From contig DAOTTC010000072.1 in the NCBI GenBank assembly GCA_034437815.1, positions 15,041 through 79,040 on the forward strand: a stretch of 64,000 bases of DNA, in the 5' to 3' direction. Below are positions 6,723-62,861 of the stretch, piece after piece (the first letter of the stretch is position 1; each line of letters opens with the position of its first letter). This DNA comes from Chloroflexia bacterium. GTDB lineage: Bacteria > Chloroflexota > Chloroflexia > QHBQ01 > JADMIH01. The position numbers were made by a program, and so were the translations under genes. The notes under the pieces were generated by a model that worked only from the letters and a program-made list of their open reading frames with translations, was not told the DNA's origin and did not search any database.

Positions 6723-6969
6723 ATCTCACCGTCCTATGCTTATTGCGCCTCTGTCAGCATCTCCAGTGCTCTACGCACATCTTTCCTGATAAGGTTTAGC
6801 GCCGTCTTCATCGCCGCCGGCCAGTAACTCTTGCATCGGGGTGAGGGGGTGCTCCCATACGGTTTGACTGCCTTTTCCGGGCCGTATGATAATCCAGCCT
6901 TTCGCAACTGTGCCCTTCAGGTCGCGGATTCTGGGGGGCATAAGCGGTCCCTCACAGGCATTACGGGCG

Positions 6970-7010
6970 ATGGTAATGGTAATGGTAATGGTAATGGTGA
7001 TAGTGATAGA
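6970..7010. repeat. Hexanucleotide microsatellite (GGTAAT)5-(GGTGAT)(AGTGAT)
   Basis: Read directly; sits in the unusually long (350-bp) sufB/D-sufS intergenic region. Confidence 0.9.
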
Positions 7011-7073
7011 TGGGGGGAGAAAATGCAGGGGCGCCCTGACCTGCTCCGCGCCCCTGCCCTACCCTGCAACCTG

Positions 7074-9474: not shown

Positions 9475-9566
9475 GATTGTGTTGTGTTCCTCCTCGCGTT
9501 CAGTCGTCGGTAGTCGCATTGGGGTTTTGGGTTGCTCTCTGTATGTCAGGCATCACATCTTTACTC

Positions 9567-46597: not shown

Positions 46598-47965
<1,368 letters not shown>

Positions 47966-47973
47966 GGCCCCGG

Positions 47974-49449
47974 TCAGGGCAGGCTCAGCCATGGCACCCC
48001 GGTCCACGCACCCAGCATGCCCACCACATGGCCGGACGCGACGAACAGGATTATCTGCACCGCAATCAGCACAAGCACCTGCAAGCGCACAGGGGCGCGC
48101 AACCACCCCTTAAGTTGAAAACCATAAAGATAAGGGGGTGCGCTTGGCTGGCGTGGCCGCGCGCCGAACAGGCCCAACCACGCGATGGCCGTGAGCGTCG
48201 AGCCTGACAGGAGCACCGCCAACCATGCACCGCCCGCACCCGCGGCTGCCTGCGATACCATCAAGGTTCCGGCGAAGCCCCCGAAGGGCGGCAACCCCAA
48301 CATAGAAGCCACTCCTACCAGCAGGCCCACCCCCCTCCAGTTGCCGGCCACATCGGCGGCATTGGGCTTGCCGCACATTACCAGCAGGGGCACGGTCGCC
48401 GCCATGTTCAGCGCAAGCAGCACCGCGCCGATCGCTCCTGATTCAGACCCTGACAACACGCCGAACAGTGCCCACGCCGTCTGAAGCGCGGCGCTCGCGG
48501 CGATAAGGGTTGGTATCGCATGATCGGCGTTTCGGGTGCGAGCCGTATCCACCACCGCCAGCGCGCGCACGCCCGCGAGCACCGCGCCCAGCGCCCCCAG
48601 CCAGCTTGCCCCCCCGCCCGTCAGGCTGCCCTCCAATGGGGCAAGCATGAGCAGCCCTGACAGCACCACCGCCGGGACGACCGCGCCCAGCACCATCATG
48701 GCGACGCCGGGTGCGGCCCGCACCAGATCGGCCATTGCCATCGAAAAGGGCGTGGCCTCGGCTCTCATCATCAACCCTACTGAAAGCAACCCCGTGCCGA
48801 GTTGCAGCAAGGCCCTGTTCTCCAGACTGAAGGCATAACGGCTTATCAGCAACGCACCCGCAACCAGCAATGCCGTGCCCAACACAGCGATCGCCAGATG
48901 TTTGATTGCGCCCGCCATGCGTCTGGCGAGCAAAGCCCTCTCCGCATCATCGTAACCGTGCCGCAGAACCACCCCCGGCCTGCTCACCGCCACAGCCGAT
49001 GCGGTTAGCGCCGCCCCAAACAAGCAGAGGGCTGTGATTATGCGGTCCTGTGCCATGAGCGCAGCGCCCAACAGAGTGGAGGTCAGCAGGGCCGCCAGCA
49101 ACGTCCAGAACGGCTGGACGCTGTAGCCGGGCGTGTCTGCGCCTTCGGCCCAACTCGACAGTACCGAAGCCAGCAATGCGATGTTGGCGGCAAGCAACCC
49201 CAGTCTGGATGGCGGGGGTAGCGCGAGGTCAAGCCCCAACACAGACAGGGCGGCGTCGCCCTGCGCGAATCCCACCAGCAGTATTTCGAGCAGCAACCCG
49301 GCACACACAACCGCCGGCACCAACCTGTCCAGCCAGATCGCTGGTCGCTGTGGAATTCGTGTAGAGCGCGCAACCGCCGCCATCAGGGATGTCAGAGCGG
49401 CGGTGAGCAGTGGCACCAACAGCGCCCATGCGACTGCGTGCTCAATCAT
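47974..49449 (-). CDS. Complex-I antiporter-like membrane subunit (NuoN/NuoM/MrpD-like, Proton_antipo_M family), divergent and Ala-rich
   Basis: 491 aa with ~14 TM helices. A remnant of the family motif G.PP..GF appears as LGLPPFGGFAG. Last gene of the 5-gene module. Confidence 0.45.
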   Translation of the reverse strand: MIEHAVAWALLVPLLTAALTSLMAAVARSTRIPQRPAIWLDRLVPAVVCAGLLLEILLVGFAQGDAALSVLGLDLALPPPSRLGLLAANIALLASVLSSWAEGADTPGYSVQPFWTLLAALLTSTLLGAALMAQDRIITALCLFGAALTASAVAVSRPGVVLRHGYDDAERALLARRMAGAIKHLAIAVLGTALLVAGALLISRYAFSLENRALLQLGTGLLSVGLMMRAEATPFSMAMADLVRAAPGVAMMVLGAVVPAVVLSGLLMLAPLEGSLTGGGASWLGALGAVLAGVRALAVVDTARTRNADHAIPTLIAASAALQTAWALFGVLSGSESGAIGAVLLALNMAATVPLLVMCGKPNAADVAGNWRGVGLLVGVASMLGLPPFGGFAGTLMVSQAAAGAGGAWLAVLLSGSTLTAIAWLGLFGARPRQPSAPPYLYGFQLKGWLRAPVRLQVLVLIAVQIILFVASGHVVGMLGAWTGVPWLSLP

Positions 49450-50323
49450 CGGTTGCCGGAACCTCCGTCGTTGTTGTGGGCATCTTTTCTAACCCTTCGA
49501 CCTGCCGCTCGGTCCGCAAGCCCTCGTGCGCCGAAGGTGTATGCCTGTCTGCGTCTTCAGTTATGGGAACGAGGGACGTGTCTGTGGGGAAGATGCCTTC
49601 CCGAGCGTCGAACAGCGCATCGAGATCGAACCTGACGAAAGCCAGCCTGAGCATGAGCCAGCCGTAAGACATTATGGCGGCGAAGGCCAATCTACCCGCG
49701 GCCAGCAGGGCGAGGAACATCGGCCCCGGCTCGACCGCGCTCAGGTTGACCGTGAGCAATATGAGGCCGTTTATCAGCGCCAGCAACCCACCGGCCAGCT
49801 TCACCGGATTGCGCGCCCCATCCACCACCAGCGCGAGCACTCCAGCCAGCACCAACCAGTACAGTGCCAGCTCGGTCTGCTCGTCCCCACCTAAGGGGTA
49901 CAACCGCGCCAGTCCAACCCCGGCCACCCCGCCCGCGAGCACTATGGCCCACAACCAGAGCTGGTCTGTGAGCTTTGCCGGCCTCTGGCCCCGCCCCACT
50001 TGCTGTTCCTGCTCCTCGCTGCGCCGCAGGGTTGCCAACTGTGCCGGTTCCAGCCCCGGCAGTTGTTCCGGTCGGATGCGTTTCAGGGCGTACAGGGTGA
50101 AAGCCATGACGGCTACGCTGGCCGCGGCGGTCACCATCTCTACGACCACCACGGCACTCGCCCCACCCGATCCCGCCTGCACACCCTGCGCTTCGCCTGC
50201 CACCAGCGCCACGCCCACCCACTGCACGAGCAGCGCGCCGAGCAGCGCCCGTCCACCCTTCAGCGTTACGAGCGCAATGCTCCCCACTACCAGCAGAATC
50301 AGCGAAATAGACATGGCATGCAT
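49442..50323 (-). CDS. NuoK/MrpC-like small membrane subunit, fused or extended with a NuoJ/MrpB-like region and an acidic C-terminal tail
   Basis: The first ~100 aa align with the NuoK pattern (SISLILLVVGSIALVTLKGGRALLGALLV...VVVEMVTAAASVAV). The middle contains an NPV...GxL segment reminiscent of NuoJ. Overlaps the downstream gene by 8 nt. Confidence 0.4.
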   Translation of the reverse strand: MHAMSISLILLVVGSIALVTLKGGRALLGALLVQWVGVALVAGEAQGVQAGSGGASAVVVVEMVTAAASVAVMAFTLYALKRIRPEQLPGLEPAQLATLRRSEEQEQQVGRGQRPAKLTDQLWLWAIVLAGGVAGVGLARLYPLGGDEQTELALYWLVLAGVLALVVDGARNPVKLAGGLLALINGLILLTVNLSAVEPGPMFLALLAAGRLAFAAIMSYGWLMLRLAFVRFDLDALFDAREGIFPTDTSLVPITEDADRHTPSAHEGLRTERQVEGLEKMPTTTTEVPATDD

Positions 50324-50388
50324 ATCAACGAATCGGTGGGCCGTTGGGGTTTGCTTTGTGCAGAGCCGGGTTCAAACGGGTAGCGCCC

Positions 50389-50418
50389 TCTATCTGGTCT
50401 ATCTGGTCTATCTGATAG
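50389..50418. repeat. 9-bp tandem repeat (TATCTGGTC)3 spanning the stop codon of the NuoL-like gene
   Basis: Read directly. On the minus strand it reads AGA TAG ACC x3, giving three consecutive in-frame TAG stops. Confidence 0.9.
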
Positions 50419-52228
50419 CGGCCAAAATGGCGAGCAATGCGGCGATCAACGCCAGTGGCAAGTAATACCGCCCTTCCAGCCTGCCGAGCAGGTGCCCGGC
50501 CCTGATGCCGAGCCGCCCGAGCAGTGCCCCGGCACCCCATATGCCCGCCTCCATCCACGCCAGCGACAGCCACCACAACAGGGCAGGCGGGTGGCCGGGC
50601 AGCCCATCGCCCGTGCCTTGCGCCGTGCCGGTAGGCCGGTGTGCGGTCAGCGACAGCCTGCCTGTTCTGTGCAGCGCGGGCGGCAACAGTATGCCGCTTG
50701 GCACCACGCCAGCACCTGCCCACGCGACCACGAGCCGGCCCACAGCGCCGACGACCAGCGCCCCGACCGCCATGAGCAGCAGCGGCACCAGCAGCCCGCC
50801 GCTTTGCACGCCAACCCATGGCAGGGCGAGGTCGGGTCTGCCGCCCGCTATACCCGACGCTGCTGCTAGCCGGGGCAGCCATACCGCGGGCAACACCCCG
50901 CCCAGCACGAGTATGCCGGCTGCGGCCACACCCAGCGCGGTGAGCGCGCGGGGCTGCGGCACCTGCGGGGCCTCGTTCGTCATATAACCCAGTATTGCTC
51001 CACCCGCCGCGAGGATCGCCACTGCCACAACCCCGATAGCCAGCAGGGGGCGCTGTGTGCCGCTGAGAGCCGATGCCAGCAGCCATATGCCCACGAACCC
51101 CGAAGTCAGGGGCGCAGCGATAAGCGAAGCGAGGGCTGTACCCGCCGACAGCCGGTCCAGAGGGTGGGCGCTCATTGCCCCGCCCGCCAGCTCCAGCGCC
51201 ACCCGGCCGGCGCTAAAAGCGGTCAGGATGGCTACTGCCGCCAGCCTCCCGGTCGGGTTGTCGAGGGCCAGTGCCCACAGGGCAAGGCCCATAGCATGGG
51301 CCGTGAGGAGCGCGGTCCACCGGCCGGTGCCCGCCCATACCGGCAGTCCCGCCGCCGCGACCAGCGCAGTTAGCCCGCCCGCCCACATCAGGCCGGTTGT
51401 GAATGCAGTCCAGCCCGCAGGCACGGTGCCCCCAAGCGCCTGAGAGGTGATCAGGGCTTGCAACCGCAGTAGGAGCACCAGCGCCGGAATTCCGAGCACA
51501 AGCGCCTGCACGAGTGCGGTGGAAGCCCCTGCTGGCCCCTGCGCACTCCAGCCTGTGAAAGGCGACAGACCCAACCACAAGACCACGAACAGCGCCACCA
51601 GCACCAGCGGCCACGTAGCTATCGCCGACAGCGATACCTCCGAGAGATCGTACGCCCCTCCGGTGGCTCGCCCGACCAACAGCACAGCGGCCCACAGGCT
51701 GAGGGCGCCCAGCCCCAGTGTCAACGGTTGCCGCTTGCTATCCGTGTTGCCCGGCCCAGTCCTCCGGGCTGCGTCGGGTGTCTCACCCAGATTCGCCATG
51801 CCCCACGCGAGCACGGCGAGAAAGAGCACATGCCCGGCATAAGCCATCAGGTCGGAAATGTGAACCATGCTGTACAGGGTGGCAATGGTGAGCACACCCG
51901 TGCCTAGTTGCCATGGCGCACCGGCTCCGCGGCCCAGCTTGGTGAGGCACAACCCGCCCACGCACAGGCACCACACCCCTGCCCACGCTGACAGCGCATC
52001 GCTTCTGTAGTCTGGGGCATTGACCCACGCAAGCGCAGGGGGCCATGCAACACTGGTGCCTGCGATCCCCCCGCCGTTCGGCCCCTCAGTGGCAAGGGCT
52101 GTTGCCACCGCCAGCGCCGTGCCCCACACTGCGGATACTCTGGCAAGCAATTGTCCGTTGCGTGACAACCCCACCACGGGGCAGAGCGCGGCCGTTGCTA
52201 TGAGTATCAGTAAGGTTGCTACCACCAC
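50408..52228 (-). CDS. Complex-I antiporter-like large subunit (NuoL/MrpA-like, Proton_antipo_M family)
   Basis: 606 aa, NuoL-like length and N-terminus. Family motif remnants SDLMAYAGHVLFL (cf. K.LLAYSSI.HMG) and GLSPFTGW. The stop codon lies inside a 9-bp tandem repeat. Confidence 0.5.
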   Translation of the reverse strand: MVVATLLILIATAALCPVVGLSRNGQLLARVSAVWGTALAVATALATEGPNGGGIAGTSVAWPPALAWVNAPDYRSDALSAWAGVWCLCVGGLCLTKLGRGAGAPWQLGTGVLTIATLYSMVHISDLMAYAGHVLFLAVLAWGMANLGETPDAARRTGPGNTDSKRQPLTLGLGALSLWAAVLLVGRATGGAYDLSEVSLSAIATWPLVLVALFVVLWLGLSPFTGWSAQGPAGASTALVQALVLGIPALVLLLRLQALITSQALGGTVPAGWTAFTTGLMWAGGLTALVAAAGLPVWAGTGRWTALLTAHAMGLALWALALDNPTGRLAAVAILTAFSAGRVALELAGGAMSAHPLDRLSAGTALASLIAAPLTSGFVGIWLLASALSGTQRPLLAIGVVAVAILAAGGAILGYMTNEAPQVPQPRALTALGVAAAGILVLGGVLPAVWLPRLAAASGIAGGRPDLALPWVGVQSGGLLVPLLLMAVGALVVGAVGRLVVAWAGAGVVPSGILLPPALHRTGRLSLTAHRPTGTAQGTGDGLPGHPPALLWWLSLAWMEAGIWGAGALLGRLGIRAGHLLGRLEGRYYLPLALIAALLAILAAIR

Positions 52229-52332
52229 TTGCTGGTGTTGCCTCCTATGTCATCTGTCAGGTCCTGCCGGCGCAGGGGCACGGGCAGAATTCATTTCACG
52301 CCACCATGCCTCATACCGCCATGTCGCCGGGT

Positions 52333-53523
52333 TCACCGCTCGGCTGATGAGATGCACAGGTCCAGCGACAGCAGTAACAGGTGGATATCTTCGAACTTCC
52401 GTCCGCGCATCAAGCCGGCTACCACCCCCAGATTGGGCAAGGATGGCGCGCTGAGATGCAGTGCGCGTGGTCCATCGGGTCCCCCCCGCACCCAGCAGAA
52501 CACCTCGCCGCGCGGTCCTTCGACCCTGCCGATACCACTCCCTTCGCGTAGCTCTGGGCTGCCCCTAGCCTTCACCGAGCCTCCGGGCAGGTCGTCCAGC
52601 GCCTGTTCGATTATGCGCAGGCTTTCCAGACACTCCAGCAACCGCACCATCAGGCGGGCGAAAGCATCGCCGGCGCGCTGGGTCACTATAGTTACGCCTT
52701 CTTCCTCGTATGCGCCGGTGGGCCAGCTGGCCCTGATGTCAAACGGTATGCCCGATGCCCTCAGCACCGGCCCGCGCAACCCGGCGATCACCGCCTCCTG
52801 CGCCGTGATGACGCCTAGGCCCACCAGTCTGGCGGCAAGCTCGCGATTGGCTGTGGCAGCGATCACATGGGCGCGCAACGCCCTCTCTATATGGCGAACC
52901 GCCAGCGCCAGCGCTCGGCACAGCGCATCATCAATATTGCGGACCAGCCCTCCGTATGTGATAAGCGCGGGCCGGGTGCGCGCTCCACTCCAGTCGGCCA
53001 CGGCCTGCACCAGCCGCTCTCGCAGGTCGCGCAGCACCGTCTCTATGTGGGTGAGGCCCAGCGCCTGCATCGTTGCGGCGGCGTTTGACAGGTGCGAGAT
53101 GACGCGCTCGATCTCGGCCAGCACCATCCGCAGGTATGCGGCTCTGGGCGGTACGATGAACTTGGCCATAGCTTCGACCGCGTGCACGAGGGCCAGCGTG
53201 TTGGCCTGCGAGCAACACGCGCATATGCCTTCCACCAATTCAAGGGCGCGGCCCCATTCCAGCCTGCCCTCGGCTACGCGCTCTTCCAGACCGATGCGGC
53301 TGTATCCCAGCTCCACCTGTGCGCTCGCTATCTCTACCCCCCAACCGGGCAACCCGCCATCGCTCGATGGGCGCAGAGACAGGCTCAGGCGCATGGGCAC
53401 AGGCAGCATGGGGTGGTATGGCCCGATGACACAGGAATGGCCGGTGGTCTGCAAGTGCGCCGGTGGTGAGCCGGCCTCGGTTGAAGCCGACTGATTTCGC
53501 GAGGGGTGTAAATCTGTCGTCAT
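52333..53523 (-). CDS. NuoD / [NiFe]-hydrogenase large-subunit family protein (complex I 49-kDa-like) retaining 3 of the 4 hydrogenase Ni-ligand cysteine positions
   Basis: Alignable to NuoD along the whole length: GPYHPML..MRLSLSL vs GPQHP..LRLVLEL; VPPRAAYLRMVLAEIERVISHL vs VPDRVDVIRVMMAEFFRITSHL; C-terminal SLDLCISSAER vs hydrogenase DPCxSCTDR. The N-terminal CxxC (EGICACC) is present. Confidence 0.7.
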   Translation of the reverse strand: MTTDLHPSRNQSASTEAGSPPAHLQTTGHSCVIGPYHPMLPVPMRLSLSLRPSSDGGLPGWGVEIASAQVELGYSRIGLEERVAEGRLEWGRALELVEGICACCSQANTLALVHAVEAMAKFIVPPRAAYLRMVLAEIERVISHLSNAAATMQALGLTHIETVLRDLRERLVQAVADWSGARTRPALITYGGLVRNIDDALCRALALAVRHIERALRAHVIAATANRELAARLVGLGVITAQEAVIAGLRGPVLRASGIPFDIRASWPTGAYEEEGVTIVTQRAGDAFARLMVRLLECLESLRIIEQALDDLPGGSVKARGSPELREGSGIGRVEGPRGEVFCWVRGGPDGPRALHLSAPSLPNLGVVAGLMRGRKFEDIHLLLLSLDLCISSAER

Positions 53524-53538
53524 GTCGCCTGCTGGCCG

Positions 53539-54063
53539 CTAAATCTCGATGTTGCGGAACACTACTGACAGCCTGCTTTGCACCTCGCTCTCCAGCAGAG
53601 CCGCCACGGGGTATATCCCCGCCACCGACCTCACAGCCCATGGGGGCGAGGTTATGCTCACAGTGTACACGATGTCGTCCTGTGCATAGAAATAGAGCAT
53701 GGTCACTTCATCTGCCTGCCCGGCGGCGTGGGCGGCCCTTCCGAGGGAAGCGGTGCGCTTTGGCCTGCTTTTATCAGTAGGGGCTGGGGGCGGGGTATGG
53801 CGTGCCGAGGTTGGCGCGAGCAGGGCGGCCCTCTCGCCCGTCATGGTGATCAGCGATGCGCCCGCCGACCTGAAAACCATGGCTATCTGGTCGGCCGGCA
53901 CATCTCGAAAGTGCAGGCGCACCTCACGCTCGTGCTCTTCCCGCATGAAGGTAAAGTGCGCGAGTTGCCTTTCGACGCCCGCCGGCCCGGCTTCGCTGGG
54001 TGGCTCTTGTTCGGGTTCGTGTTCGGGATGGGAGCCATGGAAGTGCGTGTCGTTGCCGTGCAT
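53539..54063 (-). CDS. NuoC / hydrogenase 30-kDa-subunit-like protein with a His/Glu-rich N-terminal extension
   Basis: The C-terminal core IVYTVSITSPPWAVRSVAGIYPVAALLESEVQSRLSVVF follows the NuoC pattern (P..P.SVT.I.p.A.W.EREV.D.FGI.F). N-terminus MHGNDTHFHGSHPEHEPEQEPP. First gene of the module. Confidence 0.45.
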   Translation of the reverse strand: MHGNDTHFHGSHPEHEPEQEPPSEAGPAGVERQLAHFTFMREEHEREVRLHFRDVPADQIAMVFRSAGASLITMTGERAALLAPTSARHTPPPAPTDKSRPKRTASLGRAAHAAGQADEVTMLYFYAQDDIVYTVSITSPPWAVRSVAGIYPVAALLESEVQSRLSVVFRNIEI

Positions 54064-54246
54064 CTCTGTTCACCAAAGGTAAGTTGACACCAGCGGCTAC
54101 TATACCAGCATACCCCATGGCCGTCAAGCGAGGTGACCCGACAGGCTTCCACCAACAATCGGGGTTACCAGTGGTCAAGAGGGGCTTGGAGAGGGCATAG
54201 CCCTCCCGGCCTTCCTTTGTGCCGTTTATTATTGGAGCCGTGCTAT

Positions 54247-55506
54247 AATAGCACCATGCGCATAGCGTTCAATGGGTATTTCTGGGACAGGCCTCGCACC
54301 GGCTCCGGCCAGTATCTGCGCCATCTATGGATCACCCTCTCTGATATCTACTGCGCCACTAGCTCTGGCTCTGATGGTGAGCATCTGGTCATGCTACTGC
54401 CGCCGGGTGCCTCCCCGGCTGAGCCGGTGCCCACCGGCGCTTGCTCTTACGCCGTAGCCGCAAGGCCAACATTGATGACCGGTAGAAGCGCAAAACTCGA
54501 TAAGCTGATATGGGAGCAGACGGTGAGCCAGATGGAGGCTCGGCGGCAGCGCGCCCACCTGCTGCACGTGCCTTACCTGTCGGCCCCGATCCTCAGGTCC
54601 TTGCCTGTGGTGGTGACCGCACACGATATGATACCGTGGGTGCTGCCCGGTTACGCGGGCAACCCGGCGTTCAGGCTGTATCTTATGGTAGTGGCGGCAG
54701 GGGTAAAGCGGGCCAACCTGATCGTGACCGATTCCGATGCTTCGCGGCGCGACGTGTTGAGAATACTGAAGATGCCTGCGCATAAAGTGCATACCGTCTA
54801 TCTGGGCGTGACACCGCCACCTGCCTTTACTCCCGCTCAACTGGAGGAAGTCCGGGCGCGCTATGGACTGCCCCCTCACTTCGCTTTTTACATGGGCGGT
54901 TTTGACCGCCGCAAGAACGTGCCCCTGCTGCTCAGGGCGTGGCGTCGGGTGCTGGATTCTATGGCGGCTGATGCGCCCCCTCGTTCGGATGAGAGCACGC
55001 CCGTGCTGGCAATCGGGGGGAGCGTGCCTGTGCCGGGCGGCATATTCCCTGACGTTATCGGCGAGGCCACAGCTCTGGGCCTGATGGGCGGCCCCGGCGC
55101 ACCGGTGCGCTTTCTGGGCGCAGTTGGCGAGGGTGACAAGTTCGCGCTCATGTCCGCCGCAAGGCTGTTCGTCTATCCGTCGGCCTACGAGGGCTTCGGG
55201 CTGGACCCTCTAACGGCCATGGCCTGCGGGTGTGCCGTTGTATCGTCGTTGGGCGGGTCGCTGGCCGAGGTGGTGGGCGATGCCGGCGTGCTGGTGCCCC
55301 CACAGGACGAAGACGCCCTGTGCGGGGCTATACGACGGGTGTGGGCCGATGGCGATCTGAGGGCCGAGCTTGCCTGCCGTGGGCAGCAACGCGCCCGTCT
55401 CTTTACATGGGAGCGCACCGCCCGCCAGACCCACGACCTATACCTGCTGGCGCTCAGGCAGGCTCGCCGCCGGCGCGGATCGAGAGGAGGGCGCACACAA
55501 CCTTGA
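54247..55506 (+). CDS. GT4-family glycosyltransferase (glycosyl transferase group 1)
   Basis: GT-B architecture; C-terminal EX7E-like region (AYEGFGLDPLTAMACGCAVVSS). ATG at 54247. Confidence 0.7.
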   Translation, partial: NSTMRIAFNGYFWDRPRTGSGQYLRHLWITLSDIYCATSSGSDGEHLVMLLPPGASPAEPVPTGACSYAVAARPTLMTGRSAKLDKLIWEQTVSQMEARRQRAHLLHVPYLSAPILRSLPVVVTAHDMIPWVLPGYAGNPAFRLYLMVVAAGVKRANLIVTDSDASRRDVLRILKMPAHKVHTVYLGVTPPPAFTPAQLEEVRARYGLPPHFAFYMGGFDRRKNVPLLLRAWRRVLDSMAADAPPRSDESTPVLAIGGSVPVPGGIFPDVIGEATALGLMGGPGAPVRFLGAVGEGDKFALMSAARLFVYPSAYEGFGLDPLTAMACGCAVVSSLGGSLAEVVGDAGVLVPPQDEDALCGAIRRVWADGDLRAELACRGQQRARLFTWERTARQTHDLYLLALRQARRRRGSRGGRTQP

Positions 55507-55523
55507 GCGCGACCGACCGTGTG

Positions 55524-56765
55524 ATGGAGCCGATTGAGCAAGCGAGGGCCACCCGCCATGCAAAGCACACCCCGCTTGACCCTGACTGTGGCCTGGCTGA
55601 GCGGCGTGAGCGCTTACGCGTTATGTGGCTGTGGCATGCGGCCGTGGTTGCCGAGTACCAGAAGCCCTTGGCCGTGCTGGCCGAATGCCCCGGCATAGAA
55701 GCTGTGCTGTTGGTGCCCCACCGCTGGCCTGAGCGGCCCGGCCAGATGGTGCACACCGAGAGGTTGCCCGGCGCGCGTTTCCGGCTCGTCAGAGCGCGCA
55801 CGGTGTTCACCGGTTTGTATTTCATCTATTTCTTCCCCAGCCTGCTCTATCATCTGCTCCGCTGGCGGCCCGATATCCTCTACTGCTACGAAGAGGCGCA
55901 TGCCTTCATCTCGGCGTGCGTGCTGATGATACGAAAGGTGCTCTTGCCTGATATGCGGGTGTTGCTGTATGCCGCACAGAACATAAGGAAGCGATATCCA
56001 CCGCCATTCAGCATGTTCGAGCGTTTCTGCTTCCGCAACGCTGACGCGATTATGGCCTGTGGGATTACGGTCGCCCGCACCCTGCGCTCCAAGGGATACA
56101 GAGGAGAGTTATACGTGGTGCCCTTACCTGTGGACACGCATGCTTTCGCCCCCGACCCCGACAAGCGCGCATACGTCAGAGAGCGGTTGGGCATCCCCAA
56201 CGACGCGCTGGTGATCGGCTATGCGGGCAAGCTGGTCGAAGCGAAAGGCATACGCACTCTGTGGCGGGCCTTTGTGGGCATAGCGCGCCAGCACCCTCAG
56301 GCTCATCTGGTGATGGCGGGGGCAGGTCCATTGCAAGAAGAACTGCTGGGGGCCGCCCGCGCCGCTGGGCTGGCAGATAGGCTGCATCTGGTTGGGGTGG
56401 TGCACAACGCTGACCTTCCGGCCTTCATGAACGCGCTGGACGTGTTCGTGCTCCCCTCGGAGACGCGGCCAAACTGGCGCGAGCAGTTCGGCCGGGTTGC
56501 GGTCGAAGCGATGGCCTGCGGCGTGCCCGTGGTCGGCTCCGACTCGGGCGAGATACCGCATGTGCTGGACGGGGTGGGTCTGCTGTTCCCGGAAGGGGAT
56601 GCTTCAGCGCTCGGTACCTGCCTGCGCGCACTGCTGACCGATCGAACGATGCGCGAGGAGCTTGGCCATATGGGCAGAAGGCGGGTGCTGGAGCTGTTCA
56701 CTACGGAAAGGGTGGCTGCTTGCCACTATTCGGTGTACAAGGATTTGATGCGTGGCTCTGAGTGA
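55524..56765 (+). CDS. GT4-family glycosyltransferase (second paralog)
   Basis: GYAGKLVEAKG, ETRPNWREQFGRVAVEAMACGVPVVGSDSGE (EX7E). Start uncertain: an alternative is the M of VMWLWHAAV at ~55623. Confidence 0.7.
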   Translation: MEPIEQARATRHAKHTPLDPDCGLAERRERLRVMWLWHAAVVAEYQKPLAVLAECPGIEAVLLVPHRWPERPGQMVHTERLPGARFRLVRARTVFTGLYFIYFFPSLLYHLLRWRPDILYCYEEAHAFISACVLMIRKVLLPDMRVLLYAAQNIRKRYPPPFSMFERFCFRNADAIMACGITVARTLRSKGYRGELYVVPLPVDTHAFAPDPDKRAYVRERLGIPNDALVIGYAGKLVEAKGIRTLWRAFVGIARQHPQAHLVMAGAGPLQEELLGAARAAGLADRLHLVGVVHNADLPAFMNALDVFVLPSETRPNWREQFGRVAVEAMACGVPVVGSDSGEIPHVLDGVGLLFPEGDASALGTCLRALLTDRTMREELGHMGRRRVLELFTTERVAACHYSVYKDLMRGSE

Positions 56766-56785
56766 CGCATGCCACCGATGACAGA

Positions 56786-58477
56786 ATGCGTACGACGCTC
56801 GAACAATATAAGCTAAACACCCCCACACCTGCCACCTCTACAGGCACTGTCATTCGTCAGGGTCAGGCGTTTCATCTTACCGCAGACCTGTGGTCCGCGC
56901 TGGGCGGACTGCTGCTGGTGGCGGCGCTGGCCTTTGCCATCATCTGGTCTGCCAGCAACCCATCGGTGGCCGGGCGAGAGGCCACCCGCACGGCGGCTGC
57001 CCTGCTGCGCGAAGGCAGATATTCGCAGGCCGTGGCTCTGCTTGAGCGCACCCTGCTCGATTATGACTCCCCGCAATTGCGCATCTGGTTGTCCTATGGC
57101 TATCTGGCCCGGCGGGATGCGGAGCGCGCCGGACGGCAGGCCCAGATAGCCATCTCCAAGTCGCCACCCCATCTGTTGCCTGAGGCGTGGTCGCAACTCG
57201 GCAGGGTGCTGGCCTTTGAGGGGAACCACGATCGGGCACTGGAGGCTTGGTCTCAAGCTATCGCCCACGCCCAACCCCTCACCGCCAACAAGGCGGTAGA
57301 GGCACACTTGCGCTCTGCCCTGTGGCACAGCGCGATGACCTTCTGGCGGCGTGGCGACTGGGACCCCTCTCGACGGATGCTGGAGCGGCTGTTGGAGAAA
57401 AGGGATTTGTACGGCGATTCGGCACGCCTGAAATTGGCTCAGTTGGTGGCACCGGACGACCAAGCCCGGTCCCTGCAACTGCTTGCCGAACTGGAGGCCG
57501 GTTGGCAGAGCCACTCGCAGGACGGTGCGCAATGGTTGGCCGGCAGTGCGGTGCCCGACCTGCGAGTGCCGGGCCTACGCGAAGGCATGCCATTGCAGGC
57601 ACTCCGTCGTGATGCACAGACCCTGCGCCGCGCCCTTGAACAGGCGTCGCAGGCGCAGCGGGCCGGGGGCGATGAAGCCACCATCGCTATCATCTGGGGC
57701 AATGCCTACCTGCAACAGGACGAGGCCCGGCTGGCAAAACGTTATCTGGAGAGGGCGGTTGCCCTCAACCCCCGCTCGGCGGAGGCGCACACAGGCCTCG
57801 GCATCGCCCTGATGCAACTGGGCGATGCCGACCGCGCCATATCTCACTTGCAGACGGCGGCCCGTCTGGACCGCAGCCAGCCTTTGCCGCACCACGCGCT
57901 AGTCGAGGTGTACATTCAACGCAAGCAGTGGGCGTCGGCCGCGCACGAGCTTGGCGTGCTGAGCGACTTGCAGCCCGCCAGCGTCATAGTGCGCATGCAA
58001 AGGGCCGAGTATTACGTTCAGACCGGATATTATGCGGATGCCGAAAACGAGTACATCGGCGCGGTGAACCTACAGCGTGGTGGGGCGCCGGACGCGGGCA
58101 AGGTGGACGCCATGCTGGCCCTTGCCCGGTTTTATACAGACGTGCGCGGTATGGGTTGTGAGAAGGGCCTGTCGCCGGCCCAAGAGTCTCTGGCCCGCAA
58201 CCCCGATGATCCTGCCTCGCTGGATGCTGTCGGCTGGTCGTTGGTGCTGTGCAACAGACCTGCCGAGGCCCTGCCCCATCTGGAGCGCGCCGTGTCGCTG
58301 GCCCCAGACGTGCCCCGTTATCGCTATCATCTGGCTAAGGCATATGCCGCCCTCAGGCGTTACACAGACGCACGCGACCAATATATCCGCGTCATGGATT
58401 TCGACCCCGGCGGCCCATGGGAGCGGATGGCTCGGTCGGACCTCGCCCAGTTGCCTCAGATGCACGGCCAGCCATGA
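56786..58477 (+). CDS. Tetratricopeptide-repeat (TPR) protein with an N-terminal TM anchor
   Basis: Multiple TPR-like helix pairs (W..LG......A...Y..A) and a TM segment (LWSALGGLLLVAALAFAIIW). A GTG at 56762 overlapping the upstream stop is an alternative start. Confidence 0.6.
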   Translation: MRTTLEQYKLNTPTPATSTGTVIRQGQAFHLTADLWSALGGLLLVAALAFAIIWSASNPSVAGREATRTAAALLREGRYSQAVALLERTLLDYDSPQLRIWLSYGYLARRDAERAGRQAQIAISKSPPHLLPEAWSQLGRVLAFEGNHDRALEAWSQAIAHAQPLTANKAVEAHLRSALWHSAMTFWRRGDWDPSRRMLERLLEKRDLYGDSARLKLAQLVAPDDQARSLQLLAELEAGWQSHSQDGAQWLAGSAVPDLRVPGLREGMPLQALRRDAQTLRRALEQASQAQRAGGDEATIAIIWGNAYLQQDEARLAKRYLERAVALNPRSAEAHTGLGIALMQLGDADRAISHLQTAARLDRSQPLPHHALVEVYIQRKQWASAAHELGVLSDLQPASVIVRMQRAEYYVQTGYYADAENEYIGAVNLQRGGAPDAGKVDAMLALARFYTDVRGMGCEKGLSPAQESLARNPDDPASLDAVGWSLVLCNRPAEALPHLERAVSLAPDVPRYRYHLAKAYAALRRYTDARDQYIRVMDFDPGGPWERMARSDLAQLPQMHGQP

Positions 58478-58754: not shown

Positions 58755-59675
58755 ATGAAATCACGTGGAGGTCGTTTCCTGCTAGTTCTGGGCGCTCTGC
58801 TGGCGGCCATGGCGTTTGTAGTCGTGTACGTGGTTATGTCCAAGACTACATCAGACATCGAAGCCGCCACGGTGCCCACACCTGCGCCGATGAAGGCGGT
58901 GGTCGTGGCCACGGGCGATCTGCCTGCTTACACCATGCTCAGCGCGAGCAATGTGGTGTTGCAGGAGGTGGAGGCCACCACAGTCACATCCAACACCGTT
59001 ACCGACCCGAGCGCCGTTTACGGCAAAATGACCCTCGTACCCCTCACCAAGGGCCAGCAGCTCCAGCAGAACTATGTGACCCAGTCGGGCTTCTCCACAG
59101 TGCTGGCTAAGGGCGAGAAGGCGTTTGCGCTGGCGGTCACCGAGCGCAACACTTTTGGTGGGGCCGTCACAGAGAACGACCGGGTTGACGTGCTGTGGAC
59201 CACCACCTTCCGCACGTGGGTTGCCAAGCCCGGCCCACAGGGGCAGGTAGAGTATGTGGAATCCGTGTTCACGAGCACCAAAACCCTGCTTCAGGACATC
59301 CACGTGCTGCGCGTAATTGACCTGCGTCCGCCCGTGCCCACAGAGGGTCAAGAGAGTCAGGCTCAACCCGCGTCCACCACCAATGGCAGCCCTACCCAGA
59401 GTAATGCCCCTTCACCTGAGATGTATGCGGAAGACGCTCCCTATCAGGCGGTGCTCATTCTGGGCGTTACCGACCAGCAGGCAGAGGTGCTCAAGTTTGC
59501 GCGCGAAAACGGTATCTTGGACCTGACCCTGCGCTCGTCGGCCACCTTCAAGGCTGCCGATGGTCAAGAGATGAAGGGTGACCGCGAGGCCGAGAAGACC
59601 ACCGGTATCACCATTGATAAGTTGATAACCGATTACGGCCTGCCCACACCGAAGATAGTGGAAATAGGCAGGTAA
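58755..59675 (+). CDS. cpaB: Flp pilus assembly protein CpaB/RcpC
   Basis: N-terminal TM; SAF-like domain; KGEKAFALAV...GGAV..NDRVDVL. Confidence 0.8.
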   Translation: MKSRGGRFLLVLGALLAAMAFVVVYVVMSKTTSDIEAATVPTPAPMKAVVVATGDLPAYTMLSASNVVLQEVEATTVTSNTVTDPSAVYGKMTLVPLTKGQQLQQNYVTQSGFSTVLAKGEKAFALAVTERNTFGGAVTENDRVDVLWTTTFRTWVAKPGPQGQVEYVESVFTSTKTLLQDIHVLRVIDLRPPVPTEGQESQAQPASTTNGSPTQSNAPSPEMYAEDAPYQAVLILGVTDQQAEVLKFARENGILDLTLRSSATFKAADGQEMKGDREAEKTTGITIDKLITDYGLPTPKIVEIGR

Positions 59676-59743
59676 AGCGAAAGCGCTACATGGGGTATGG
59701 GGTATGTGACATGTGGTATGGGGCACGTGCAACATGCGCTAAC

Positions 59744-59818
59744 CGTGCACGTTTCACATATCACGCAACAGGCGGCTACCACACGTCACGTTTTACCCGT
59801 CACGCATCACGTTTCATG
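59744..59818. promoter_or_regulatory. Cluster of direct repeats of CACGTTTCA / TCACG(C/T)(A/T)TCAC in the cpaB-cpaE intergenic region
   Basis: gtgCACGTTTCACatATCACGcaac ... CACGTCACGTTTtacccGTCACGcATCACGTTTCAtg, read directly 25-100 bp upstream of the cpaE start. Confidence 0.5.
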
Positions 59819-59841
59819 AAAGGACGAATCAGGAGCTCATC

Positions 59842-61161
59842 ATGGACAATCAGGCAGTGAACGGCAGCATGCCGAAAATAGGCGTGCTCATCGTTGACGA
59901 CATAGCCGATACGCGCGATAACCTGAGCAAACTGCTGTTGTTTGAGCGCGACATCGAGGTCGTGGGCACGGCGGGCAGTGGGCCGGAAGCCATAGAGATG
60001 TGCCGCCGCGCCAACCCCGACGTAGTGCTCATGGACATCAATATGCCCGAGATGGACGGCATTAAGGCCGCCGAGATCATCAGCAGCGAATTCCCGGGCA
60101 TGGGCCTGATCATGATGTCGGTGCAGGGCGAGCAGGACTACCTGCGCCGCGCCATGCTGGCCGGGGCCAGAGAGTTTCTGGTCAAGCCCTTCTCAAGCGA
60201 TGAGTTGGTGCGCTCCATCCGCCATGTGTACAGGCTGGAATCCACCAAGCGGGCTATGGCCGCCGCGGCGGCTGTGCCGGGCACCGGCATGCTCACCCCT
60301 CAGGGGCAGGCCGGGGGCGACGGCGAGCCACGCCACGGTAAGATCTTGACCGTGGTAAGCCCCAAAGGTGGGGTAGGCAGGACCACCGTCGCGGTGAACC
60401 TCGCCGTGGCACTCAAGCTGTCCACTCAGAAGAAGGTGGCCCTTGTGGATGGCTCGCTGTATTTCGGCGATGTCGGGGTCATGATGAACCTGCTGTCCAA
60501 TAAGACGTTGATTGATGCTGTGGAGCATATAGACGGGTTGGACGAGGACCTGCTGAACGACCTGATGTCCACCCACTCATCGGGGGTGAAGGTGCTGCTG
60601 GGACCACCCCAACCCGAACAGGCCGAACTGGTGACCGCCGAGCACATCCGCCGGATTCTGGTGGGCCTCACCGCCGGCTATGACTATGTGGTCGTGGATA
60701 CGTGGCCGTCCTTTGCCGAGACGGTGCTCACCGCTATGGATCTGGCCGACCACATCCTGCTCGTCATGACCCTCGAGATGACGGCCATCAAAGACGTCAA
60801 GCTGTATCTGGAGGTCGTGGAGAAGCTCAACTACCCGGCGGAGAAGGTCAAGCTCATCCTCAACCGGTCAGGCAGTTCGGGCGGCATCAAAGTGGAAGCG
60901 GTGGAGGAAACCCTGCGTCACAAGGTGATGGTGGGGTTGAGCAACGACTTCGTGGCTATGCAAACTGCCATCAATCAGGGTGTGCCGCTGGTTATTTCGG
61001 CCAGAGAGCACCCGTTCTCTCGAGATATCTATCGGTTGGCCCGGCTGTTGACCGCCACAACCGTTGAGGACAAGGCTCTGGCGCAGGCCACGGCGGCTGT
61101 GCGTGCCGAGGAAGCTAACCGCACCAAGCTCATGTCCAAGCTCAAAGCGGCGTTCAGATGA
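59842..61161 (+). CDS. cpaE: CpaE/TadZ pilus-assembly ParA/MinD-family ATPase with an N-terminal response-regulator receiver (REC) domain
   Basis: REC motifs (IVDDIADTR, acceptor Asp in VLMDINMPEMDG, LVKPF) and a deviant Walker A (SPKGGVGRTTVAVN). Confidence 0.8.
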   Translation: MDNQAVNGSMPKIGVLIVDDIADTRDNLSKLLLFERDIEVVGTAGSGPEAIEMCRRANPDVVLMDINMPEMDGIKAAEIISSEFPGMGLIMMSVQGEQDYLRRAMLAGAREFLVKPFSSDELVRSIRHVYRLESTKRAMAAAAAVPGTGMLTPQGQAGGDGEPRHGKILTVVSPKGGVGRTTVAVNLAVALKLSTQKKVALVDGSLYFGDVGVMMNLLSNKTLIDAVEHIDGLDEDLLNDLMSTHSSGVKVLLGPPQPEQAELVTAEHIRRILVGLTAGYDYVVVDTWPSFAETVLTAMDLADHILLVMTLEMTAIKDVKLYLEVVEKLNYPAEKVKLILNRSGSSGGIKVEAVEETLRHKVMVGLSNDFVAMQTAINQGVPLVISAREHPFSRDIYRLARLLTATTVEDKALAQATAAVRAEEANRTKLMSKLKAAFR

Positions 61162-61220
61162 TCTGATTTGGCGCATGACATGAATGGTGTAATCCAAACC
61201 CCATAGCGTGAGGTAAAGCG

Positions 61221-62684
61221 ATGTCTCTGCTCAAACGAATAGGCACTACCGATCCGATGCCGGGCAACAGGGAAGGCGGCCCGGTCAAGACCTCCGGCCC
61301 TCTAGGCAACGGGGGCATGAACCAGCCGCCGGGCACCAACGCCATGCCCCGGCCCAACACCAGCCGCCTCACCGGCCCCCCAGATGACAGCCAGAGGCGT
61401 TCCGGGCTTACCAGCAACAGCGACTTCATTGACCTGAAGAACCGTGTGCAGCAGAAGCTGATCGCCGAGCTGGACCCCAAGCTGGACCTCACCAAGACCG
61501 ATGAGGTGCGCCGTAATGTCGAGGAGATATTCAACGAAATCCTCGACTCCGAGAACATCGTGCTGACCAGAGTGGACCGCGCCCGATTGTTCGAAGCGGT
61601 AGCCGCCGAGATTCTGGGCTTCGGTCCCATCGAGCCGCTGCTCAAGGACCATACGATAAACGAAATCATGGTCAACGGCCCCAAGCTGGTGTACATCGAG
61701 CGCCACGGGCGTCTGGAGAAGACCAACATCCAGTTCCAGAACGACGAGCACGTAATGCGCGTCATAGACCGCATAGTGGCTCCGCTGGGCAGGCGCATTG
61801 ACGAAAGCTCGCCTTATGTGGACGCCCGCTTGCCCGACGGGTCCCGCGTGAACGCCATCATACCGCCGCTGTGCCTCAACGGGCCGACTATCACCATACG
61901 TAAGTTCTCTAAAGACCCGTTCACCGTGGATGACCTGATCCGCTTCGGTACCATGACCCCGGAGATGGCGACCTTCCTCAAAGCGTGCGTGGAAGCGCGG
62001 TTGAACATCGTGGTATCGGGCGGCACGGGCACCGGTAAGACCACGACCCTCAACGTGCTCTCAAGCTGGATCCCGGCGGACGAGCGCATCATCACCATCG
62101 AGAACGCTGCGGAGCTTCAGCTCCGTCAGGAGCACGTGATCACGCTGGAGTCCCGACCGCCCAACATCGAAGGCCGGGGCGAAGTGACTATACGCGACCT
62201 CGTGATCAACGCCCTGCGTATGCGCCCCGACCGCATAGTGGTCGGGGAGTGCCGCGGCGGCGAGGCGCTGGACATGCTTCAGGCCATGAACACCGGCCAC
62301 GACGGCTCTATGACCACCCTGCACGCCAACTCGCCGAGGGACGCCACCTCCCGTCTGGAGACTATGGTGCTGATGGCCGGCATGGAACTGCCCATGAAGG
62401 CCATACGCGAGCAGATAGCCGCCGCCATCGACCTGATCGTCCAGCTCGAGCGCCTGAAGGATGGTTCCCGCAAGATCACCAGCATCACTGAAGTGCAGGG
62501 TATGGAAGGCGATGTGATCGTTATGCAGGACATCTTCGTGTTCGAGCAGACCGGCGTGGAGGGCGGCAAGATAGTGGGCCGCATGAAGCCCACCGGCATC
62601 CGCCCCAAGTTCATCGAGAAGTTCGAAGCGGCCAACATCTACCTGCCGCCCAACATCTTTGGCTATAACGAGCGGTTCTTCTAG
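61221..62684 (+). CDS. cpaF: CpaF/TadA secretion ATPase (VirB11/GspE family)
   Basis: Walker [44 protein letters not shown], and 487 aa. Confidence 0.9.
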
Positions 62685-62861
62685 AGCGTAGTGTAGTGGG
62701 CAATAGGTGAGGCTATGCCCTATGGCAGATGGTCATGACGAGCCAAAAATGGGGGTGCTGGGCTTACTTGGTAGCGTGGGGGTACAGGTGTATCCCGATG
62801 TCATATTCTGTTTTCACAGTCCTTTCGGAAAGGGTTGGTATCACAGGTCAAGGAGGGTGAG

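Follow-up and report, generated by a model that had tools for sequence, protein, structure and literature searches.

In the structurally characterised forms of complex I and of the energy-converting hydrogenases, the interface of NuoB, NuoD and NuoH is regarded as the site where chemistry is coupled to ion translocation. The group 4 hydrogenase Mbh of Pyrococcus furiosus (PDB 6CFW) has a NuoH-like subunit, MbhM, a NuoI-like one, MbhN, and the MbhA-G/Mrp small subunits. Also pertinent are the Ehr complexes, group 4 hydrogenase relatives with Mrp antiporter-like subunits, whose defining trait is that the NiFe-binding CxxC motifs are lost and which are not believed to be hydrogenases (PMC6349859, PMC10284858); a survey-level report places them in Chloroflexi (bioRxiv 10.1101/2021.08.23.457424). 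The Chloroflexia locus considered here appears, from its sequence, to be a new variant within the group 4 hydrogenase / complex I superfamily.

The window, i.e., the whole stretch of DNA that was analysed, is 64 kb of contig DAOTTC010000072.1, which is 328,739 bp long. The features of the locus are:

54099..54127, minus strand: sigma-70-like promoter candidate (TTGACG, 17 nt spacer, TG-TATAGT), a consensus match only
53539..54063, minus strand: gene 1, NuoC/MbhK-like small cytoplasmic subunit, 174 aa
52333..53523, minus strand: gene 2, group-4 [NiFe]-hydrogenase large-subunit / NuoD-like, 396 aa
50408..52228, minus strand: gene 3, NuoL/MrpA-class antiporter-like subunit, 606 aa
49442..50323, minus strand: gene 4, family-specific membrane subunit, 293 aa, 7 predicted TM
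47974..49449, minus strand: gene 5, MbhH/MrpD/NuoN-class antiporter-like subunit, 491 aa

The five co-oriented ORFs are separated by gaps of 15, 104 and 84 bp and share one 8-nt overlap; coordinates, strand and spacing in the ORF list are exactly those of a preliminary description of this DNA, and the flanks that it gave, convergent purA (PF00709) and divergent GT4 genes, are also as found. The promoter candidate agrees with the consensus at 10 of 12 positions and lies upstream of gene 1, 36 bp from its start codon, and inside the five-gene module no minus-strand promoter-like or terminator-like site was found.

Gene 2, whose product is here called D, had been taken as akin to NuoD or to the large subunit of NiFe hydrogenases. 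It does match Complex1_49kDa (PF00346, E 1.9e-43), and is nearer to the hydrogenase proteins than to NuoD: the clade profile finds MbhL at 3.4e-55, ahead of HycE at 1.5e-44 and NuoD at ~1e-35. Identity to NuoD is ~33% and, at 204 bits, the protein is below every curated NCBIfam cut-off for NuoD/NdhH/FpoD (360 bits or more); it is a member of the PF00346 superfamily and not a NuoD at equivalog level. In alignment its cysteines fall on the NiFe ligands of MbhL, and three of the four are kept: the N-terminal CxxC reads ICACC, and the C-terminal motif, DLCISSAER, indicates that the fourth ligand Cys has been replaced by Ser, so that the two CxxC pairs of a group 4 [NiFe]-hydrogenase large subunit are not both present. 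Among 19 tabulated clade loci the fourth Cys is Ser in four, the window included, and both pairs are kept in 15, as they are in two loci added later and outside that count (L043 and L044). The three cysteines that remain of the earlier NiFe site do not vary across the clade, and the L1 His is Asn family-wide. The conserved three-cysteine site of D may still bind a metal or ligand, and such strict conservation (of four cysteines in most relatives) could mean an unpredicted metal-centre chemistry, a point against the non-redox reading given below. For gene 1, proposed to be NuoC-like, it is the orthologues that carry the assignment, 12 of 18 matching PF00329 (best E 1.6e-7), whereas the window protein itself has no Pfam match; the match to NuoC of MBS (6u8y_K) is weak, E 0.16, and the N-terminus is His/acid-rich and variable.

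What of the membrane arm? The NuoN/M/MrpD-like character claimed for gene 5 is borne out by its family profile, which matches MbhH (6cfw_H) over its full length at 1.6e-6, MrpD (6z16_D) at 4e-5 and the NuoN of MBS at 4e-4; the window protein on its own gives TIGR01770 at E 1e-4 and PF00361 at E 0.26. The NuoL/MrpA-like nature attributed to gene 3 holds by predicted fold and by a widened profile, and not by any sequence match of its own: alone it has no Pfam and no PDB sequence match, and no clade member has a Pfam match. Its AlphaFold (AF2) model (pLDDT 76, pTM 0.77) has, in Foldseek, MrpA (7d3u_A) as best match at 1.2e-12; MrpA, NuoL and HycC are matched at E 1e-12 to 1e-10 with TM scores of 0.61-0.66, a range that includes NuoN. 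When the profile is widened with cousin sequences MBS, NuoN, NuoL and MrpA come up at E 4e-11 to 6e-5, and hhalign of gene 3 with gene 5 gives E 2e-4. A long C-terminal helix followed by a final TM anchor is predicted, and TM7 carries a PF(T/H)xW motif. In both subunits, then, fold or family is that of the complex I antiporter-like subunits and the canonical charges are not: gene 3 has none of TM5 Glu, TM7 Lys and TM12 Lys, and gene 5 has Arg in place of TM7 Lys and has lost TM5 Glu and TM12 Lys.

Gene 4 was described as a NuoK/MrpC-like protein with a NuoJ-like extension, and that assignment is not upheld. Sequence and profile searches gave no significant Pfam or PDB match; a Pfam scan of the family was negative for all 16 members, and in a wider set 1 of 42 matched PF00420, at E 6.7e-4, below the cut-off. 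In hhalign NuoK (E 0.06) and NuoJ (E 0.012) align over just one common RN hairpin, and NuoH gives E 0.76. An exhaustive search of 1.84 billion proteins recovered just 58 representatives of the gene 4 family and did not extend into the families of NuoK or NuoJ. An assignment to NuoK/NuoJ is thus unsupported, sequence and profile similarity staying below cut-off. The protein is homologous to a 253-aa protein at the same position in the cousin loci described below (hhalign probability 98%). The AF2 model, of low confidence at pLDDT 56, lays it out as three TM helices, a charged cytoplasmic linker helix, four more TM helices, a conserved LFDxRxG motif and an acidic tail. Because of that low confidence, a connecting or docking role for gene 4 is a guess.

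The preliminary description also had the module lacking NuoB, NuoH and NuoI. By tblastn, by six-frame HMM search run with positive controls, and by a Pfam survey of the other ORFs, no homologue of any of the three was found in the module or in the whole 64 kb window, and reanalysis found no such gene adjacent to or overlapping the five. The window also has no PF01058 homologue and none of the hyp maturation genes; genes of PF00146 or Fer4 type were found neither in module or window nor in any family locus. For NuoH and NuoI the claim can be extended, as neither has a counterpart in any of ~25 family loci; an archaeal outgroup (L023) and a canonical nuo operon (L042) contain both. For NuoB it has to be narrowed to the module and window, since the family commonly has one: in ~15 related Chloroflexia loci the gene directly after gene 5 is a sixth, B, a homologue of NuoB/MbhJ (6.8e-18 against MbhJ). 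It is a small subunit without its cluster, three or four of the Fe-S cysteines being missing in the clade, where the motifs are HLHMGG, GD[A/C]AINGG and PG[D/S]PP as against GSCNGC, GAC and PGCPP of MbhJ. The five-gene form without B is confined to a small subclade, namely the window, L006, L043 and L044; the last three likewise have no B, H or I homologue. A scan of the metagenome for B used exact peptide patterns, and its coverage of this sample is uncertain; another part of the genome may hold the gene for a NuoB-, NuoH- or NuoI-like partner.

Comparison of gene order in related genomes, which the preliminary description had proposed, recovered a conserved six-gene order, C-D-L-X-N-B (X being gene 4), as the commonest form in the family and presumably the ancestral one of the lineage. 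The architecture had been said not to be a described one, and no published description of C-D-L-X-N(-B) without NuoH and NuoI was found, Ehr literature included. However, it is no one-off, being conserved in ~20 or more uncultured Chloroflexia species, where its neighbours are GT4/TPR genes or purD, and having less diverged cousins. Two of these, L040 and L041 (Logan SRR10278331 and SRR10267473), are C-D-L-X-N-B with all Fe-S and NiFe cysteines intact; immediately upstream, in the same orientation, is a response-regulator gene. In L024 (Ca. Chlorohelix) and L025 the order is D-L-X-N-B, no C-like gene being detected, the four-Cys D is kept and only the ligands of B are gone. NuoH and NuoI are absent from all four. 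Pfam recognises every gene of these cousin modules except gene 4 (five in L040/L041, four in L024), PF00361 genes being at both antiporter positions in L024 and L040, and the cousins keep TM12 Lys with part of the TM5/TM7 charges. The relay residues have thus been lost stepwise across relatives, and in B the Fe-S ligands went first, after which the gene itself was gone from this locus. With B absent, the fourth NiFe Cys replaced by Ser and the relay residues gone, the module in the window would be the furthest reduced stage so far known in a Chloroflexota lineage without NuoH and NuoI.

All module genes are under purifying selection. Each has a dN/dS clearly under 1; six-gene loci range over 0.05-0.27 and five-gene loci over 0.12-0.48, with D the most strongly constrained subunit (0.05-0.12), gene 1 at 0.18-0.29, gene 4 at 0.13-0.35, and the membrane subunits of the five-gene pair, at 0.34-0.48, somewhat above the others. 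The genes are intact in >20 species, gene order and translationally coupled overlaps are conserved, and many residues are invariant.

The module seems to have descended from an Mbh-type energy-converting hydrogenase, and the reading that we favour, with moderate confidence, is that of a membrane complex maintained by selection, the most reduced stage of that lineage and most likely non-redox. The coupling subunits, Fe-S ligands and proton-relay residues have been lost and yet selection persists, which makes redox-driven ion pumping an improbable function. The judgement that this is a compact, strongly diverged complex I / group 4 hydrogenase / Mrp-like module that has probably moved off redox chemistry was, we think, right. 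By synteny and homology a cytoplasmic C-D cap would sit on a membrane arm of genes 3, 4 and 5, the C-terminal helix of gene 3 would clamp neighbouring subunits, and gene 4 might dock or connect where NuoH, NuoJ and NuoK would be. Having neither an Fe-S relay nor an electron-input subunit nor a quinone/NuoH site, the complex should be incapable of redox-driven pumping and of hydrogenase activity alike. Most likely it would be a non-redox device that conducts or exchanges ions, perhaps along a path using Glu62 of gene 4, the TM7 Arg and Asp241 of gene 5 and the TM8 Arg of gene 3, the cap being retained as a structural or regulatory plug. The loss of the canonical Lys/Glu residues speaks against transport of the classical Mrp type, so that ‘ion-conducting’ is the weakest step. 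A more tentative proposal, less likely than not, is that C-D-L-X-N-B is an unrecognised lineage of the superfamily that never had, or very early replaced, the NuoH and NuoI found in all its other members, in which gene 4 would be a new coupling/docking subunit, the ligand-complete L040/L041 minimal membrane-bound hydrogenases with an architecture of their own, and the window’s clade a cofactor-stripped branch, recruited to a new non-redox function, that still needs its D cap and three-Cys site.

Could the complex nevertheless be a working energy-converting [NiFe]-hydrogenase or redox pump, with a NuoB-like partner, and perhaps NuoH- and NuoI-like ones, elsewhere in the genome? The affinity of D for MbhL and HycE, the alignment of its cysteines with NiFe ligands, both CxxC pairs in most relatives and the full set of ligands in L040/L041, of the same architecture, are all compatible with this, and the portion of the genome inspected is 64 kb. 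It is quite unlikely, however, as B, wherever the clade has it, is without three or four Fe-S cysteines, Ser is at the fourth D ligand in the window and three other lineages, the L1 His is Asn throughout, ~25 family loci have neither NuoI-like nor NuoH-like gene, and the relay Lys/Glu residues are gone. The invariance of the three former NiFe-site cysteines despite the loss of electron transfer, and the strength of constraint on D, would also suit a sensor or signal-transducing complex, in which the Cys3(-4) site would bind a gas, a metal or a redox ligand and the antiporter-like arm would relay a membrane or ionic signal. The response-regulator gene next to the L040/L041 modules is in keeping with that idea, which is nonetheless doubtful: it leans on a single neighbour gene of distant cousins, the module in the window’s clade has neither a kinase nor a response regulator nor a transcription factor linked to it, and known sensors are not built like this.

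At the other extreme is a relic, a decaying operon that is still intact. The step-by-step disappearance of cofactor ligands, of relay residues and of the B gene, divergence of the membrane subunits beyond the reach of Pfam and the somewhat higher dN/dS of those subunits in the five-gene pair are what decay would bring, but selection on every gene, and the persistence of intact genes, coupled overlaps, gene order and invariant residues in so many species, make it very improbable. Hardly credible is the notion that only C and D belong to the complex I superfamily and that genes 3-5 are generic diverged membrane proteins in the same operon by chance. Genes 3 and 4 do go without a Pfam match in every clade member; against this are the antiporter-like fold, the widened profile and the PF(T/H)xW motif of gene 3, the matches of the gene 5 profile to MbhH, MrpD and NuoN, the cousin PF00361 genes at both positions and the homology of gene 4, position for position, between clade and cousins.

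In this lineage D, C and two antiporter-like subunits persist and no NuoH or NuoI is recognisable, and living relatives grade from forms with every ligand to forms without cofactors. Together these make it a natural experiment on a machine of this superfamily: which parts does assembly need and which does catalysis, by what means is a peripheral cap joined to a membrane arm without NuoH, and of what are antiporter-like subunits capable once the canonical Lys/Glu chain is lost? The ~60 protein clusters of gene 4, and the gene 3 and gene 5 families, are now annotated ‘hypothetical’.

Of the solved structures, Mbh gives the best matches for D (MbhL), gene 5 (MbhH) and the sixth gene (MbhJ), and the C-like gene 1 corresponds to MbhK. 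Of MbhM, MbhN and the small subunits nothing is recognisable in the module, which therefore has neither the NuoH-like anchor nor the NuoI-like 2x[4Fe-4S] subunit of a group 4 hydrogenase; the four-Cys NuoB/MbhJ small subunit is missing here and cluster-less in relatives, and the fourth NiFe Cys is Ser. In contrast to Mbh the module adds a second, NuoL/MrpA-like antiporter subunit, while the TM5 Glu and TM12 Lys of the relay are gone. With Ehr it has in common the association with Mrp antiporter-like membrane subunits, here genes 3 and 5. However, whereas Ehr has lost the CxxC motifs, the clade keeps the N-terminal one and mostly the C-terminal one too (the window protein is without one of the four Cys), and it is the Fe-S cluster of the small subunit that was lost instead. 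In probably not being a hydrogenase the module is close to the sense of the Ehr definition, though not to its wording. From the 11-subunit complex I (nuoABCDHIJKLMN, as in L042) the module differs in having no NuoB with cluster N2, no A, H, I or M, no recognisable J or K and no quinone-site subunit; the two share homology in their C, D, L-class and N-class subunits, a membrane arm topped by a peripheral cap and, as predicted for gene 3, a C-terminal helix of NuoL type followed by a terminal TM anchor. The Mrp antiporter (PDB 6Z16, 7D3U) likewise has MrpA-class and MrpD-class subunits with small TM protein(s) encoded between them. The full seven-subunit set MrpA-G is not there, as the module is without MrpE/F/G homologues, its operon has no further small TM genes and the canonical Lys/Glu are mostly gone, but it does have what Mrp does not, a hydrogenase-type C-D cap.

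The module is a real and conserved architecture, without NuoH and NuoI, within the complex I and group-4 hydrogenase superfamily, and the window shows its most reduced stage. Its five co-oriented ORFs lie exactly where the preliminary description had placed them:

53539-54063, minus strand: gene 1, NuoC/MbhK-like (C)
52333-53523, minus strand: gene 2, NuoD/MbhL-like (D)
50408-52228, minus strand: gene 3, NuoL/MrpA-like (L)
49442-50323, minus strand: gene 4, a family-specific protein with seven predicted TM segments (X)
47974-49449, minus strand: gene 5, MbhH/MrpD/NuoN-like (N)

The spacing first described (gaps of 15, 104 and 84 bp, with genes 4 and 5 sharing an 8-nt overlap) is also right, as are the flanks, convergent purA beside gene 5 and divergent GT4 glycosyltransferase genes, with a TPR gene, upstream of gene 1. 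The stop codons of purA (plus strand) and gene 5 (minus strand) are 8 bp apart (window 47963-47976), so that an intergenic terminator between these convergent genes has no room. A sigma-70-like promoter candidate, a consensus match only, is 36 bp upstream of gene 1 and, as a search of the minus strand inside the module gave no promoter-like or terminator-like sites, the sequence is consistent with a single transcript. The JGI metagenome contig that contains the window, Ga0400900_000003 (328,739 bp), has gene calls (locus L028) that begin later, giving 327 aa for gene 2 and 495 aa for gene 3. Since the later starts drop N-terminal segments conserved in orthologues, the public start sites of both genes are probably too late and the annotated proteins truncated.

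G+C of the module region (48000-54000) is 0.645-0.68, against typically 0.59-0.64 across the window (34-36 kb also reaches 0.67), and its GC skew is strongly negative; both features probably come from Ala/Gly/Leu-rich membrane proteins being encoded on the minus strand. The divergent GT4-GT4-TPR set adjoins the module in the window (54133-58477) and in the related loci L001 and L002/L003, and a GT4 gene is also upstream of the module in the distant cousin L041, which could reflect either functional linkage or merely conserved gene order. The flanks differ in L043 and L044, two B-less relatives, being purD and a phosphoribosyltransferase gene, not GT4 and purA. Downstream of the GT4-GT4-TPR genes in the window is a Tad/Flp-type pilus set (58755-63848: RcpC/SAF protein, response-regulator/ParA-like protein, T2SSE ATPase and T2SSF platform protein), and at 5346-10325, minus strand, is a cluster of Suf genes for Fe-S assembly (a SufS-like class V aminotransferase, SufB/D and the SufC ABC ATPase), after which comes a weak MarR-like regulator ORF.

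Are NuoB, NuoH and NuoI truly missing, as had been proposed? For NuoH and NuoI the proposal stands, and more widely than envisaged: no such gene is present at the window locus or at any locus of the family, and both are in their expected places in L023, an archaeal outgroup, and in L042, a nuo operon of canonical type from Chloroflexota. (The L023 operon, a canonical hydrogenase operon from a Thermofilaceae archaeon, has the order C-D-(antiporter fragment)-B-H-I, and immediately downstream of it, at 4531-5106, is a protoglobin-domain gene.) For NuoB the answer is divided. Neither tblastn nor an HMM search of six-frame ORFs (controls 2e-70 and 1e-50) found a NuoB-like gene in the whole 64-kb window, the rest of which carries housekeeping genes and none of the nuo, hydrogenase or hyp kind; there is no sixth gene at the locus either in L006, L043 and L044, which are among the window's nearest relatives in the D tree. 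However, the gene 2 clade is represented in reference genomes by 21 MAG loci and, wherever the contig is long enough, a C-like gene, a D-like gene and genes 3, 4 and 5 are followed colinearly by a sixth, of 141-157 aa, whose product is a NuoB/MbhJ homologue (PF01058; MbhJ E 6.8e-18). As the gene is absent only from the window and a small subclade and present in their relatives, its absence, judged from the loci compared, is real there but derived. A stand-alone gene 6 in L033 was considered and rejected, as it is still linked to the gene 5 C-terminus with one small inserted gene between. When the gene 6 alignment was used to scan JGI metagenomes, no Ga0400900 contig came up; the scan used exact peptide patterns, with uncertain sample coverage. 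Where the sixth gene persists in the window's clade its Fe-S ligands have been replaced: the first Cys pair, GSCNGC in MbhJ, is HLHMGG, the third Cys position, GAC in MbhJ, reads GD[A/C]AINGG, and the fourth, in PGCPP, has given way to PG[D/S]PP.

When the five window proteins were compared with Pfam and NCBIfam, gene 2 alone was informative. It is Complex1_49kDa (E 1.9e-43) and scores under every curated NCBIfam NuoD/NdhH/FpoD cut-off. The best matches of its clade profile are hydrogenase large subunits (MbhL 3.4e-55, HycE 1.5e-44; complex I NuoD/NdhH ~1e-35), and in alignment with MbhL its cysteines fall on the NiFe ligands, which bears out its initial assignment as a NuoD or NiFe-hydrogenase large-subunit-like protein. 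Its homologues form a tight clade of ~95 proteins, all from uncultured Chloroflexia/Chloroflexota, with 56-69% identity, which falls to ~33-35% beyond the clade, among other 49-kDa and hydrogenase proteins. The NuoC-like identity of gene 1 comes through its orthologues, 12 of 18 of which match PF00329 (best E 1.6e-7), but the window protein itself has no Pfam match, and the clade-only profile reached E 0.16 at best against PDB sequences.

The antiporter-like subunits are similarly diverged. Gene 5 alone is marginal (TIGR01770 E 1e-4), and its family profile, matching MbhH over the full length (1.6e-6) and also MrpD and the MBS NuoN-like subunit, upholds the antiporter assignment. In L043 (6756-8363) and L044 (9836-11455) its product is ~45 aa longer (535-539 aa), with ~30 residues inserted in a cytoplasmic loop and a C-terminal end that differs and is shorter. 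For gene 3 the NuoL/MrpA-like label is favoured by predicted fold and a widened profile, but not by its own sequence: none of 17 orthologues has a Pfam or PDB sequence match and the clade-only profile found nothing among PDB sequences. Its AlphaFold2 model (22 sequences, pLDDT 76, pTM 0.77) resembles MrpA, NuoL, HycC, NuoN and MrpD (Foldseek E 1e-12 to 1e-9, TM 0.6-0.66), and a profile with two cousin sequences added, which may supply part of the signal, matches MBS, NuoN, NuoL, NdhF and MrpA at E 4e-11 to 6e-5. The conserved C-terminus is predicted, with low model confidence there, as a ~35-residue helix and a final TM helix, resembling the lateral helix of NuoL.

Gene 4 is another matter. 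Its product is predicted to have three TM segments, a charged linker helix and four further TM segments, with a conserved LFDxRxG motif, and no test gave a significant link to NuoK, NuoJ, NuoH or the Mrp or Mbh small subunits. The early characterization as NuoK/MrpC-like with a NuoJ-like extension thus comes down to sub-threshold hints, the sole lead being such a match to PF00420 in 1 of 42 family members, and the gene stays without a family assignment. The clade-only profile gave noise against PDB sequences, and a model from a 4-sequence alignment (pLDDT 56) yielded meaningless Foldseek matches to GPCRs (TM ~0.25). In ech, hyc and coo operons a NuoH-like gene comes after the NuoL-like gene, and NuoH was therefore considered for gene 4; it was rejected at the sequence level (hhalign E 0.76). 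The family is tiny, 58 representatives among 1.84 billion proteins, and includes the X of the cousins, which is homologous to gene 4 (hhalign probability 98%).

These cousins, L040/L041 (Logan SRR10278331 and SRR10267473) and L024/L025, share the architecture with subunits that Pfam recognises, and with the window's clade they form a graded series.

Stages of the module
Ligand-complete, L040/L041: response regulator, then C(PF00329)-D-L(PF00361)-X-N(PF00361)-B(PF01058); B keeps four Fe-S Cys (GSCNAC, GTCAV, GCP), D both CxxC pairs
B cluster lost, L024 (Ca. Chlorohelix) and L025: D-L-X-N-B, no C-like gene detected; B cluster-less; D has four Cys
Window's clade, about 20 MAG loci: C-D-L-X-N-B; B cluster-less; fourth Cys of D is Ser in four lineages, including the window and L016 (91% identical to L002)
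Window's subclade (window, L006, L043, L044): C-D-L-X-N; B gone from the locus; fourth Cys of D is Ser in the window, Cys in the other three

The stepwise loss of ligands from cousins to the window's clade is paralleled by that of relay residues in genes 3 and 5.

Relay residues (canonical; cousins; window's clade)
Gene 3 TM5: Glu; Glu kept; Gln or His
Gene 3 TM7: Lys; Lys or Arg; lost
Gene 3 TM12: Lys; already replaced (Gln in L040, Arg in L024); lost
Gene 5 TM5: Glu; already lost (Gln in L040); lost
Gene 5 TM7: Lys; Arg; Arg
Gene 5 TM12: Lys; Lys kept; Thr

Is the module then a relic on its way to pseudogenes? Comparisons of close orthologues by the Nei-Gojobori method give dN/dS of 0.05-0.27 for every one of the six genes in six-gene loci and 0.12-0.48 for the five genes of the B-less pair L043/L044, where the somewhat higher values of the membrane subunits rest on small divergences and are not to be over-read; gene 2 is the most constrained. 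These values mean that the genes are maintained by selection, and on them the relic reading is rejected.

The ancestor of the module was an Mbh-type hydrogenase/Mrp assembly. Every known electron-input or relay element is missing from it (there is no NuoI or NuoE/F/G, and B, Fe-S-ligandless in relatives, is absent here), as is the NuoH-type substrate and coupling subunit, and most of the canonical proton-relay residues have been lost. We infer that it can neither work as a hydrogenase nor serve as a redox-driven pump. Its five proteins would still assemble as a cap-on-membrane-arm complex, in which gene 4, via its conserved cytoplasmic linker and LFDxRxG motif, could be the docking or connecting element, and the gene 3 C-terminal helix may clamp the membrane arm. 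Taken whole, the most likely reading, held with moderate confidence, is of a device that conducts or exchanges ions without redox chemistry and whose C-D cap is structural or regulatory, the weight being mostly on its being non-redox, assembled and functional, and far less on its transporting ions. Its main rival is that the invariant three-cysteine site of D senses a ligand, at which the response-regulator gene directly upstream of C-D-L-X-N-B in L040 (1316-8021) and L041 (3818-10523) hints; that hint, however, is confined to distant cousins. The module of these cousins, itself without NuoH or NuoI, could, from its sequence, represent a membrane-bound hydrogenase in minimal form, with an architecture not described before.

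How does this compare with known systems? The architecture does not appear in a 2025 survey of complex I variants (PMC12361115), Ehr complexes in Chloroflexi have been reported at survey level only (bioRxiv 10.1101/2021.08.23.457424), and the literature searches gave generic Ehr descriptions and none of this architecture, though an earlier mention may exist. Among characterised systems Mbh is the nearest, and among named categories Ehr, which PMC6349859 and PMC10284858 define by the CxxC motifs having been lost, whereas the module's clade mostly keeps them.
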